Source: Escherichia coli
GTDB lineage: Bacteria; Pseudomonadota; Gammaproteobacteria; Enterobacterales; Enterobacteriaceae
Strand: one strand, 5' to 3'
DNA length: 64,000 bases
Assembly: GCF_003018255.1 (NCBI RefSeq)
Contig: NZ_CP027440.1
Shown here piece by piece: positions 7,834 to 11,651 of this stretch. The position numbers and the translations under genes were made by a program. The first letter of the stretch is position 1. Each line of letters begins with the position of its first letter. The notes under the pieces are model-generated. The model had not been told where the DNA came from. It saw nothing but the letters and a program-made list of their open reading frames with translations, and did no database searches.

Positions 7834-8607
7834 TCAGAATTTCCAGGTCAGATGGGCTGCAAGTTGCAGACCGTTATAATCATCGGTTGGGGTGTCGTAC
7901 CACACTTTACCTGCCGTCAGCCCGAGATTAAGTTGCTCAGTCAGCGGTTGAATACGTTGCAAACTGACGCTCTTCATGCTGCCGTAGCGTGTTTCTGGCG
8001 TCCAGTCATAGGTGTAAGCACCTGTTCCGCGGCTTAGCCATAGTTGCGTATAACCAGTGCCGCGCGGGTCATTCAGACGCACGGAAATCATATTGCTGTA
8101 ACTACCACCTGCATCGCTGGAGTCATAATGGGTATAGCGATAGCTGGTGATCACCGGGCCTGTATAGAGGGATACGCCGCCTTGCCAGGCATCGACTTCG
8201 ACATCATCGTAATATTTAGTGTAGCGATAACCGGTCGTGAAAAGCGTTTTTGGCAACAGGGCCAGGTTAATATCCTGACGAAAATCCTGGCGGGCAAAGA
8301 CCGGCGTATTATCCGCAAAGGCAATACCCGTTCGGGTTGTCAGCCAGTTATTCCATTTATACCAGACCGCACCCTGACCGCGAGTGGCATTGAAATGTTC
8401 AGTTTCATAATCACGACGCCCCTGGGAAAGATTAAAAAGCAGCGTTGCGTTTTCAACTTTCGCCACCAGTTCAGCATACGCTAAATTACGGTTGCCATGA
8501 TCGCCAGAATAATCGGTAAAATCGTAGCCCGCGGTAATGGAAGTTAACCCGGCATAAGCGGGCAATGTGCTAAATATTGCCGCCGCTAATAACGTCCGTT
8601 TTATCAT
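7834..8607 (-). CDS. yaiO: outer-membrane beta-barrel protein YaiO
   Basis: 257 aa; signal peptide MIKRTLLAAAIFSTLPAYA; alternating aromatic/hydrophilic strands; C-terminal ...HLTWKF. Confidence 0.85.
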   Translation of the reverse strand: MIKRTLLAAAIFSTLPAYAGLTSITAGYDFTDYSGDHGNRNLAYAELVAKVENATLLFNLSQGRRDYETEHFNATRGQGAVWYKWNNWLTTRTGIAFADNTPVFARQDFRQDINLALLPKTLFTTGYRYTKYYDDVEVDAWQGGVSLYTGPVITSYRYTHYDSSDAGGSYSNMISVRLNDPRGTGYTQLWLSRGTGAYTYDWTPETRYGSMKSVSLQRIQPLTEQLNLGLTAGKVWYDTPTDDYNGLQLAAHLTWKF

Positions 8608-8608
8608 T

Positions 8609-9319
8609 TTAATCTCCTGTACGGATAAGTTCTTGTCGGAGTGAATAAGTTCCGGTAGGTAAATTACGTTCTACAACCACGCGCGGGCCAAGTTGCGTGT
8701 TCGGGGAAATAATTCGCCCAGGCAAAATAATAACTTGTACGCCAAGGCGTGAACGCTGCCCGATATAACAACCTAATTTATCGCATCCGGTAGCGATAAT
8801 TCCCTCTGGAGTTCGAACAGACACGGGCTGTTCATCCAGACGATGATTACTGGTTCGTACTTGTGCGCCCAAATATGCCTGGTTTGCAACTACCGAGTCG
8901 GCAATAAAGCATTGCGGACCAATCGTTGCTTCCGCTTCAATAACCGCATTTTTAATTTCGGTGGCAAAACCAATTTTTACGCCATTGCTGATTATTGTGC
9001 CAGGACGAATAAACGCATAATTACCTATCAGGCAGTTTGCGCCAATCACTACCGGACCCTGAATAACGGCACCGTGGCAAATACGGGTATTCGCGCCGAT
9101 AACAACCTCACCGGCACTTTCATCAATAATCACCTGGTCTGCAATCTGAATATTTTTCTCTTTAACATTAAGCTTCAGATAGTTTTTCAGTTCCTGTGAC
9201 AGAAGGGTGGGAATAAGCGGTTGACGCTTCCACCAGTGCGGAATAGCGGGTGGGTTTGTCGCGCTGAGGTTCGCGTCCAGTAAAAAAGGCAATAAGTCCA
9301 TAAATAATCCAGATGGCAT
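8609..9319 (-). CDS. yaiX: hexapeptide-repeat (left-handed beta-helix) acyltransferase-like protein; start codon uncertain
   Basis: Uninterrupted 236-codon frame; repeated [LIV]-G-x-x-x-x-I hexapeptide units (VVIGANTRICHGAVIQGPVVIGANCLIGNYAFI...); upstream end overlaps the yaiP 3' end in another frame; candidate ATGs at 9319 and 9301 lack an obvious SD. Confidence 0.7.
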   Translation of the reverse strand: MPSGLFMDLLPFLLDANLSATNPPAIPHWWKRQPLIPTLLSQELKNYLKLNVKEKNIQIADQVIIDESAGEVVIGANTRICHGAVIQGPVVIGANCLIGNYAFIRPGTIISNGVKIGFATEIKNAVIEAEATIGPQCFIADSVVANQAYLGAQVRTSNHRLDEQPVSVRTPEGIIATGCDKLGCYIGQRSRLGVQVIILPGRIISPNTQLGPRVVVERNLPTGTYSLRQELIRTGD

Positions 9320-10364
9320 AAGCTAATAATACATACACAACGGAAAGCGGTGCTAAAGGCACCAACAACCAGCAACGATGAAACCAGGCGCTAAATGCAC
9401 CAATAACACAAACTACGCCGACCCAGATAAGCGGGAACATTGCCAACACCACACCATGTGGCCCGGTGGTGATGAATTCATTAAACCAGGTAGTGAGATA
9501 AATCCCAACGCCATAAAGCACAACCAACAGCATAGGAAATATACTGAAGATACCGAAGCGGCTAAATAAAAGTCTTTTATGCAGGCGCATACAGACCGCG
9601 TAGCCCACAATCCAACGCCGCCAGCGACGCCATTCCTCACGCGGGCTGTTGCATTCCTGTGGGTATACGATGCAGCGATTCGCCTGCCGAATACGATAGC
9701 CGTTTGCCACCAATGTCCAGGTGAGATCAAGGTCTTCGACTTTAGTACGATCAGAGAAACCGAACTTACGCAATACATCAGTACGGAACATCCCGCAGGC
9801 ACCGCTGATAATAAACGGTGCGCCGCCCAGGAGCTGCTGTAGCGTGCGCTTCATAACAATCATCGGCAACTTTACGGTCGCGCGGATGTGCGGTAACAGA
9901 CCCGCGCCTTTCAACGCAGTAGAGGGAATGCCGCCTACGGCATCAGCACCGCGCTCTATTTCTGCCAGCATATAGCCCATTCCGTCTTGATCGGGCGGAA
10001 CATAGGTGTCGGCATCATTTAAAAAAACCTGATCGCAGGTGGCGTAATTGAGGCCATTCATTAGCGCACCACCTTTACCGGTATTTTTTTGCGTGACGGC
10101 AATAAAGCGGTCGCCCCATTTGCGTTTGACTTCCGCCATGACCGCTTCGGTATTGTCCGTGGAGCCGTCGTTAACGCAAATTACCCGGCAGAAATAAGGG
10201 TTACGCAGCAGATTATCCAGTGACTGCGCCAGACACGGGCCTTCGTTATAAGCAGGTATAATGGCGTCAATACAGCCTTTCTTTTGGCTGGGCTTACGCC
10301 TTAACGTACTCAGAAACCATAGCAATATTGCTACGGCCATACATATAAAGATCCAGGTTTTCAT
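9168..10364 (-). CDS. yaiP: family-2 glycosyltransferase with N- and C-terminal membrane segments
   Basis: 398 aa; DxD-like NDAD motif, REEWRRWRRW resembling the QxxRW motif of processive GT2 synthases; hydrophobic C-terminal third. Confidence 0.85.
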   Translation of the reverse strand: MKTWIFICMAVAILLWFLSTLRRKPSQKKGCIDAIIPAYNEGPCLAQSLDNLLRNPYFCRVICVNDGSTDNTEAVMAEVKRKWGDRFIAVTQKNTGKGGALMNGLNYATCDQVFLNDADTYVPPDQDGMGYMLAEIERGADAVGGIPSTALKGAGLLPHIRATVKLPMIVMKRTLQQLLGGAPFIISGACGMFRTDVLRKFGFSDRTKVEDLDLTWTLVANGYRIRQANRCIVYPQECNSPREEWRRWRRWIVGYAVCMRLHKRLLFSRFGIFSIFPMLLVVLYGVGIYLTTWFNEFITTGPHGVVLAMFPLIWVGVVCVIGAFSAWFHRCWLLVPLAPLSVVYVLLAYAIWIIYGLIAFFTGREPQRDKPTRYSALVEASTAYSHPSVTGTEKLSEA

Positions 10365-10373
10365 GCAATTTGC

Positions 10374-11060
10374 TCAAAGAATCATTTTATGAATAACAAA
10401 ACCTTCACCCAGATCGCTATTGACCTGTTGCCCGCGAAATTGAGCAACTGCACGCAGACGCTCCGGGCGCATATAATCTCGCTGGCTCTGACTTTTATGT
10501 TTTTTTAACGCAGTCAGTTTAAGAGAAAAATATTCTTCTTTCACGGATTCAAAAACCTGAGGCATAAATGAAAGCCAGGTACTTGGTGTTTCATAGCCGA
10601 GAATTTGCGGAATAGCGCGACAGGCAACCATTGAGGCTTGATAGACTGCAAGATGATCCTGATGGCGGTCAGCATCATGCATGGTATATACACGTATAAT
10701 TTCAATATCAGAGGGAATTTGATTTTTTATGATATTTTCCAGGGCAGAAATCATATCATTGAGCTGTAAATGAGCGCGGGTGTCAGCAAAATTAAGATGA
10801 ATAGTTTGGTGGCACCCTAATATCTTTAGAGCGTTGCGTGATTCTTCGTGGCGATCGATTATTCCATCTACGCCAGAATTACCGGTAGTCATCACCACGG
10901 TAGCAATATAAATTCCTTTTTGCGCAAGGCGAGCTAGCGATGCGCCACAGCCTAATTCTATATCGTCAGGATGCGCGCCAATGGCAAGGATACCCTTTCT
11001 TTTATTTGCCGAAGAAAGGATCGCTGAATCTAAAACCTTATCCACTTTATGACACTCCAT
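10374..11060 (-). CDS. yaiS: PIG-L/LmbE-family deacetylase
   Basis: 228 aa; GAHPDDIELGCG zinc-deacetylase signature near N-terminus. Confidence 0.85.
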   Translation of the reverse strand: MECHKVDKVLDSAILSSANKRKGILAIGAHPDDIELGCGASLARLAQKGIYIATVVMTTGNSGVDGIIDRHEESRNALKILGCHQTIHLNFADTRAHLQLNDMISALENIIKNQIPSDIEIIRVYTMHDADRHQDHLAVYQASMVACRAIPQILGYETPSTWLSFMPQVFESVKEEYFSLKLTALKKHKSQSQRDYMRPERLRAVAQFRGQQVNSDLGEGFVIHKMIL

Positions 11061-11651
11061 TTTATTTATTATACTACAAGCACAACGACGCCCGCAGAGA
11101 CGTAACCTCTGACGCAGACAGATGCTAATTTTTAAGTGTTAAAAATAGCTGATAGCTGAAAAACAAGGGGCTGCCAGGTACGGGGATAAGACTGTATAAT
11201 CTTTATGTAGTTCATATGTTAAGTGTTTGTGTGTTTGGTTTGTATGGTTATTTTGTTTTATATATTGTATTTAAATGTGATTTAGTTTGTCAATTAATTG
11301 CATATTAAAAATATGTTCTATGCACAAATATGGGTTATATACATTATGTGAATGTATTATGTGGTTGATTGAGAATGATACAGTTATATATGCAATGTGA
11401 ATATAATGGTTTCATTATATGTATTGCTGTTAATAAAATAAAAGACATTATAATCTGCTTGTTTATGCATTAATAAAATGAAGTGCAGTAACTTACTGAA
11501 TTGTCAGAGTGGGTGTAATTGCATATTTAATCTTTCCTTTGCCACTTTTTCGCTAAGAATAAAATCATCTGTGCGATAACAACTAATTCTTTTAATGAAT
11601 GTTTTTATTCCTGAATACTGCTCCCATAACAAGACAGGGGAGCAGACAATC

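Follow-up and report, generated by a model that had tools for sequence, protein, structure and literature searches.

Where does translation of yaiX begin? In Escherichia coli this putative acetyltransferase gene overlaps its upstream neighbour, the glycosyltransferase gene yaiP. Both were studied in a window of 64,000 nucleotides (nt) of contig NZ_CP027440.1 (assembly GCF_003018255.1), the whole stretch of DNA analysed, in which the genes frmA-frmR-yaiO-yaiX-yaiP-yaiS-tauA lie in this order on the minus strand. A sequence-only reading of the window had noted that the two genes share about 150 bp in different frames, and the shared stretch indeed measures 152 nt (9168..9319), with yaiX in the +1 frame relative to yaiP. 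Its coordinates also hold: the longest yaiX frame opens at ATG 9319, and yaiP ends with a TAA stop codon at 9170..9168. As it had pointed out, there is no in-frame ATG past the yaiP stop, the 236-amino-acid (aa) translation containing just two methionines, M1 (9319) and M7 (9301), and neither ATG is preceded by a recognisable Shine-Dalgarno (SD) sequence (anti-SD duplex +0.9 kcal/mol for 9319 and -3.1 kcal/mol for 9301). The element upstream of ATG 9301 is a bare GGA, and -3.1 kcal/mol is reached by 41% of positions within yaiP. Two solutions had been offered, a non-ATG start near the yaiP stop or an unusually long overlap with translational coupling.

The comparative evidence given below points to ATG 9301 as the start of yaiX in E. 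coli and its enteric relatives, a reading to which we assign a probability of about 70%. YaiX would then have 230 aa, and 134 nt would be truly dual coding with yaiP. ENA gene calls use this codon (230 aa, P0001), and a 2026 paper names a '236-aa variant' of YaiX (PMC13058169). RefSeq/PGAP has given one intact yaiX three non-ATG starts in different E. coli genomes (L001, L002, L030-L032), and these starts, CTG 9202, CTG 9190 and GTG 9133, are probably truncations. Seen in a single sequence, the overlap is within chance: when the YaiP sequence and codon usage are held fixed, an ATG and an open +1 frame as far as the Trp-Trp codons of yaiX (9235..9230) are found in 16% of synonymous randomisations of E. 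coli yaiP. The overlap becomes significant through comparison among genomes and not through the open frame of one genome.

The comparison included 15 loci from a genome-collection scan and 11 from ten contig look-ups of specific homologues, nine of which gave a contig. Sixteen junctions are of the enteric type (E. coli, E. whittamii, four Citrobacter, four Salmonella, two Enterobacter, Superficieibacter, a metagenome-assembled genome (MAG) of Ignatzschineria, a second E. coli paralogue, and one Logan contig). Seven distant loci with yaiP upstream serve as outgroup (Pseudomonas viridiflava, Acinetobacter, Sphingomonas, and several MAGs), and two loci from candidate phyla radiation (CPR) bacteria have no yaiP upstream. 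ATG-GA is present at the position of 9301 in all 16 enteric junctions, where it is made by the Tyr/His-Gly codons of YaiP (TAT in 13 and CAT in 3, followed by GGA for Gly356 in 16 of 16). Four-fold sites elsewhere in yaiP are saturated, with a pairwise third-position identity of 0.31, and invariant columns amount to 0 of 70 among well-conserved four-fold controls and 1 of 73 among two-fold controls. Synonymous codon diversity, normalised per amino acid in 10-codon windows, is 0.97 ± 0.13 along yaiP and falls to 0.30 in just one deep trough, at codons 355-365 (ATG 9301 and the ten codons that follow it). None of 5000 column permutations gave a trough of that depth, so that this block is under excess synonymous constraint. 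The chance of finding an ATG and an open frame to Trp-Trp, given the YaiP sequence and codon usage, ranges from 0.07 to 0.71 per lineage, and our own product of these chances over 11 diverged lineages is ~5e-5.

These figures bear on the idea that enteric yaiX has lost its start and is decaying, or is translated poorly or not at all, so that the upstream ATG and the open frame are by-products of YaiP. In its favour, yaiX is disrupted by IS2 in K-12 and is missing or partial in some strains, and the 16% chance applies to the ATG and open frame in E. coli alone. However, the full beta-helix open reading frame (ORF) has stayed intact, dozens of its residues are invariant although the enteric clade is deeply diverged, neither the synonymous trough nor the invariant ATG-GA is expected from YaiP constraint alone, and repaired yaiX gives a phenotype (PMC3531124). 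We regard decay of yaiX, with poor translation or none, as very improbable.

The distant loci indicate what the junction looked like earlier. All seven share the pattern ...AGG-TAY-NNN-N[A/G]TG-TGG-TGG-NNN-TGA, in which YaiX starts with Met/Val-Trp-Trp, YaiP ends with ...DKPTRYxxVVx, and the genes overlap by 14 nt, the yaiP stop lying 8 nt past the first Trp codon and the yaiX start 11 nt before the stop. The Arg codon of the DKPTRY motif is AGG in six loci and AGA in one, and three GC-rich genes contain no other AGG, so it acts as an embedded SD, 7 nt before the start. In the two CPR loci YaiX begins M/V-W-W after an intergenic GGA-rich SD; since yaiP is absent upstream, Trp-Trp is a feature of YaiX and not a shadow of yaiP. 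The outgroup codon equivalent to 9301 is ATG in 3 of 7 loci, and stops occur in the stretch in 3 of 7.

In the enteric loci, which form one clade in a YaiP tree, the motif Arg is encoded by CGC, CGT, or CGA and in none of the 16 by AGG or AGA, and the SD has thus been lost in all enteric junctions. All of them have also lost the ancestral yaiP stop, with YaiP tails extended by 2, 7, 19, 21, or 24 residues, and E. coli has no start codon before Trp-Trp (CAC at 9238..9236). Trp-Trp itself is kept in the yaiX frame in all 16. Across the lineages the overlap measures 14 nt, 83-95 nt, and finally 134-149 nt, intermediate states being found in living lineages.

YaiX very probably includes Trp-Trp. 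Between Trp-Trp (9235) and the yaiP stop the yaiX frame is the better conserved, with a mean pairwise identity of 0.57 versus 0.38 for the yaiP frame, which makes the YaiP tail the passive frame, and from the yaiP stop to GTG 9133 the relatives differ solely by substitutions and whole-codon indels. An identity figure for the yaiX-only codons 51-110 was disregarded because it had been computed unaligned across indels. Confidence of the AlphaFold2 (AF2) model from Trp-Trp onward is 73, then 89, then 98. With Trp-Trp in the protein, all three RefSeq starts are excluded and an overlap of at least 68 nt is unavoidable.

This disfavours the first of the two solutions, in which yaiX starts at CTG 9202, CTG 9190, or GTG 9133, the product has 174-197 aa, there is little or no overlap, and re-initiation after yaiP is possible. 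RefSeq/PGAP annotation does use these codons, Citrobacter has a GTG at the position of CTG 9190, and the domains matched in Pfam and NCBIfam begin at around residue 48-55. Moreover, GTG 9133 is 34 nt past the yaiP stop, and such a distance is a plausible range for re-initiation. On the other hand, three different choices for one gene mean that there is no clear signal, and none of the three codons has a usable SD; CTG is, besides, a very poor start codon. The 9133 codon is GTC, TGC, GCG, or ATA in relatives, the 9202 codon is not a start in most of them, and the indels between the yaiP stop and 9133 are of whole codons. Starting at any of the three would delete the Trp-Trp segment, whose conservation extends from CPR bacteria to E. 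coli and which evolves under constraint in the yaiX frame, and would leave the synonymous trough at 9301 unexplained. A downstream non-ATG start is consequently considered unlikely. A relay through a 12-codon mini-ORF in the third frame (9129..9167, minus strand), running from TAATG at the yaiP stop to the TGA in GTGA at GTG 9133, was rejected as a chance feature; E. whittamii has ATA in place of the ATG, and Citrobacter lacks both ends.

A start that retains Trp-Trp might instead be the near-cognate ATT 9244 (Ile26), two codons before it, which would give ~211 aa and an overlap of 77 nt. This position is ATG in Salmonella, E. bugandensis, and Superficieibacter (AMPWW, AMPPRWW), the PGAP pseudogene feature in K-12 begins at the same codon, and AUU is a proven, if rare, start in E. 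coli (infC, pcnB). Against this, ATT 9244 lacks an SD (+0.4 kcal/mol) and has the most structured context among the candidates (-17.5 kcal/mol), several relatives carry ATA or ACA instead, and the constraint centred on 9301 is left unexplained. Little credence can be given to ATT 9244.

The constrained block also contains a T6 run (GCC TTT TTT ACT, 9287..9282), on which a +1 slip with perfect tRNA-Phe re-pairing would yield a YaiP-YaiX fusion. The geometry permits a slip from the yaiP frame into the yaiX frame, the two TTT codons are found in 13 of 16 and 14 of 15 sequences, and yaiX has no good independent start signal. Yet 5 of the 16 enteric loci (L004, L019, L021, L022, L026) have an interrupted run, whereas ATG-GA is kept in all. 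Nor does the site resemble a programmed +1 frameshift, as the A site holds neither a stop nor a rare codon and an upstream SD stimulator of the kind present in prfB is lacking. No fused homologue of family-2 glycosyltransferase (GT2) and left-handed beta-helix (LbH) domains was present among the 120 matches listed, and the ancestral arrangement clearly uses independent initiation. The chance that YaiX is made as a fusion by slippage seems to us very slim.

The initiation region at ATG 9301 has features of its own. Third positions conserved in the block are almost all A or T, and within E. coli yaiP the interval from -20 to +30 ranks at the 96-97th percentile for weak structure and for AU content; it ranks high in most relatives as well. 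Conserved RNA structure does not account for the constraint, the 121-nt region around 9301 folding worse than 190 of 200 shuffles, and a search of 8000..11500 for known RNA elements gave no credible Rfam match. An internal promoter or a leaderless mRNA was likewise rejected: a consensus scan found no promoter-like site within yaiP, and synonymous sites just upstream (codons 345-352) vary normally. The starts of yaiS and yaiP are also without SD, and E. coli ribosomes are reported to initiate correctly genome-wide without SD pairing (PMC7043885).

Comparison of YaiX N-termini, which the sequence-only reading had proposed as a check, thus supports one of its two ATG codons: ATG 9301 and Trp-Trp are conserved, and ATG 9319 is not. 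The Tyr349 codon that supplies ATG 9319 varies freely between TAT (7) and TAC (9), and 9319 was set aside as a conserved start, although it may be used in E. coli in addition to 9301. The second proposed solution stands only in part. Conservation and the synonymous trough favour a long overlap; coupling is not favoured, because ATG 9301 is 131 nt upstream of the yaiP stop, where ordinary termination-reinitiation cannot reach it, and SD-independent initiation fits better.

Several points weigh against ATG 9301. The enteric ATG has a single evolutionary origin, and its presence in 16 of 16 reflects retention and not repeated gain. The SD-like GGA is at background strength, ribosomes translating yaiP would occlude an internal start, and the constraint on synonymous sites might in principle reflect some other function at the nucleotide level. 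At the protein level, the yaiX frame varies freely over the ~11 residues between the conserved tip and Trp-Trp, and residues 9-19 of the AF2 model are disordered (predicted local distance difference test (pLDDT) <50), giving no protein-level support for that part. A literature search found no ribosome-profiling, toeprint, or N-terminal peptide data for yaiX, and neither yaiX nor yaiP is mentioned in the TRAINSPOTTER N-terminomics supplements.

From the observed geometry, conservation, and synonymous-site constraint we infer the initiation codon and the following course of events. The ancestral junction would have had an SD provided by the AGG codon of DKPTRY, an ATG or GTG directly before Trp-Trp, and a 14-nt overlap. 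On the enteric stem the SD, the start, and the stop would have been lost, initiation would have shifted 22 codons upstream to the ATG made by the YaiP Tyr/His-Gly codons (xAT GGA), and YaiP would have been read through into a tail of 2-24 residues. Initiation would now be SD-independent, on an AU-rich, unstructured stretch presumably kept by selection at yaiP synonymous sites. The predicted product has a new leader of ~22 residues, mostly disordered with a conserved MDLLPFLLD tip, followed by the Trp-Trp segment and the beta-helix domain.

The tip is encoded in the +1 frame of the last membrane helix of YaiP and its FFTGRE motif. It may have been kept as a peptide or as an initiation region. 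The reading that overprinting created the tip, M-[D/E]-L-L-P-F-L-L-[D/E], de novo as a functional peptide, and not as a mere by-product of the start shift, is doubtful. If it were functional, it could for instance serve as an anchor that holds the soluble acetyltransferase at the membrane or at YaiP itself, the overlap would be a selected device coupling two enzymes, and dated intermediate stages would still be present in Salmonella and Enterobacter. A bolder variant would be a +1 slip of part of the ribosomes at the T6 run, with a YaiP-YaiX fusion enzyme as the product.

Coordinates of the features discussed are collected in Table 1.

Table 1. Features of the yaiP-yaiX region, in window coordinates
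Feature	Position	Strand	Description
yaiP	10364..9168	-	398 aa, family-2 glycosyltransferase, PgaC-like; from ORF list and RefSeq annotation
yaiX, proposed form	8609..9301	-	230 aa from ATG 9301; predicted left-handed beta-helix acetyltransferase
yaiX, longest ORF	9319..8609	-	236 aa; from ORF list
Probable dual-coding overlap	9168..9301	-	134 nt; yaiP codons 355-398 and stop; yaiX codons 1-45 of the 230-aa form, +1 frame
ATG 9319	9317..9319	-	M1 of the 236-aa ORF; only in the Escherichia lineage and one close relative (L029); SD +0.9 kcal/mol
Suppressed synonymous block	9270..9308	-	yaiP codons 353-365; ATG 9301, 6 nt upstream, and peptide M-[D/E]-L-L-P-F-L-L-[D/E]-x-N; AU-rich, unstructured
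Remains of ancestral initiation region	9236..9248	-	Arg373 CGC (outgroup AGG); His28 CAC (outgroup ATG/GTG)
Trp-Trp codons	9230..9235	-	W29-W30 of the 236-aa frame; N-terminus of distant homologues; confident structure model begins here
YaiP C-terminal tail	9171..9227	-	19 codons (380-398); ancestral TGA at codon 380 lost; poorly conserved in yaiP frame
RefSeq yaiX starts	9131..9202	-	CTG 9202 (197 aa), CTG 9190 (193 aa), GTG 9133 (174 aa)
yaiX-yaiO junction	8605..8618	-	AGGAG, yaiX stop TAA, A, yaiO ATG; SD -7.4 kcal/mol
Promoter-like site, yaiS-yaiP-yaiX-yaiO operon	11264..11293	-	TTGACA-18-TACAAT; best match, consensus scan only

Both frames of the overlap are open, and each encodes a member of a conserved protein family, as is required of long dual coding. 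YaiP matches PF00535 of Pfam (E=1e-27). YaiX matches the hexapeptide-repeat profile Hexapep PF00132 above its cut-off of 27 bits (67.1 bits, E=7e-19), and its AF2 model, built from an 80-sequence alignment, has a mean pLDDT of 86.5, with 95-99 across the repeat region. The top PDB matches of the model are the LbH domains of ST0452, GlmU, and LpxD, which predicts a left-handed parallel beta-helix. The best structural match is the LbH domain of ST0452 (Sulfolobus tokodaii), of the archaeal GlmU type, in which sugar-1-phosphate nucleotidylyltransferase and amino-sugar-1-phosphate N-acetyltransferase are combined (Foldseek E=5e-12, 34% identity, ~185 columns). In the GlmU-type profile TIGR03992, YaiX covers positions 233-393 of 393, the C-terminal 160 residues, with 129 bits against a cut-off of 292. 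It lacks the nucleotidyltransferase domain of bifunctional GlmU (TIGR03992, NF041173) and does not belong to that family. Profile searches identify the yaiS product as a PIG-L (de-N-acetylase-like) deacetylase and the yaiO product as an outer-membrane beta-barrel. The operon resembles the PgaABCD and IcaADBC cassettes for the exopolysaccharide poly-beta-1,6-N-acetylglucosamine (PNAG) in its GT2 synthase (YaiP, TIGR03937, 100 bits), YaiS, and YaiO, and in the clumping reported on repair of yaiX, and differs from them in that all scores are below equivalog cut-offs, the deacetylase family is not that of PgaB, and the acetyltransferase YaiX is added.

The gene is intact in the window and split by IS2 in K-12, and at least 80% of the query is present in 4463 of 5426 genomes. 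Repair of the K-12 pseudogene led to a YaiP-dependent clumping phenotype (PMC3531124). A second, diverged yaiS-yaiP-yaiX-yaiO copy is found in some genomes (L005 and L008, both Citrobacter braakii ATCC 51113; L023/L024, E. coli), one homologue (P0051) is labelled plasmid-borne, and the near relative in the Ignatzschineria MAG suggests horizontal spread. In Enterobacter sp. PGRG2 (L021, 2141..2226) the gene call for yaiX (241 aa) is much extended at its C-terminal end and overlaps yaiO by 86 nt, so that the cassette there contains a second long overlap.

Start annotation is inconsistent for yaiS as well (10374..11060, minus strand), the longest ORF having 228 aa and RefSeq giving 185 aa for K-12 but 223 aa for one other strain; H1, the closest genome, has yaiS as a pseudogene. 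Close upstream of yaiP, opposite the 3' end of yaiS, a 120-nt antisense gene is annotated at ~10389..10508 on the plus strand (L001 1413..1532, L003 681..800); it is named ykiC in K-12 and 'hypothetical protein' in H1. An antisense RNA inside yaiP served as control in one paper (PMC4666370). A terminator-like hairpin is present inside yaiP (9348..9364, minus strand), ~30 nt upstream of ATG 9319, and is probably due to chance, the scan having returned 3 terminator-like sites where 3.6 were expected.

Among known arrangements, coupled pairs with short overlaps (ATGA or TAATG type) resemble the ancestral yaiP-yaiX junction, with its SD inside yaiP and its 14-nt overlap, and the outgroup loci belong to this class. 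The yaiX-yaiO junction is also of this kind and reads as an ordinary coupled arrangement. The E. coli yaiP-yaiX junction differs, its start lying 131 nt upstream of the stop without an SD above background, and does not fall into this class. It is closer to overprinted long same-strand pairs, with which it shares two frames, synonymous constraint in the older frame, and a de novo N-terminal extension. It differs from these in that both partners are ordinary, widely conserved enzymes and in that the overlap would have grown from 14 to 83-149 nt by migration of both start and stop.

In prokaryotes, most of the long overlaps in annotation are put down to mispredicted start sites, and bacterial same-strand cases are usually dismissed on this ground; that of yaiP and yaiX is backed by synonymous-site constraint, and the enteric pair would be a new, well-supported example of the rare real cases of same-strand dual coding. 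Some 4,500 complete E. coli genomes have an intact yaiX locus, and the RefSeq records sampled all use CTG or GTG starts that remove a conserved N-terminal segment. A single ATG start, giving 230 aa, would unify the annotation and guide expression constructs for a gene linked to reported clumping and drug-resistance phenotypes (PMC3531124, PMC13058169). TAT-to-TAC changes at 9300 and 9318 would destroy ATG 9301 and ATG 9319 and be silent in yaiP. The junction would also provide a readable history of how a compact junction can become dual coding once its Shine-Dalgarno sequence, start, and stop are lost.

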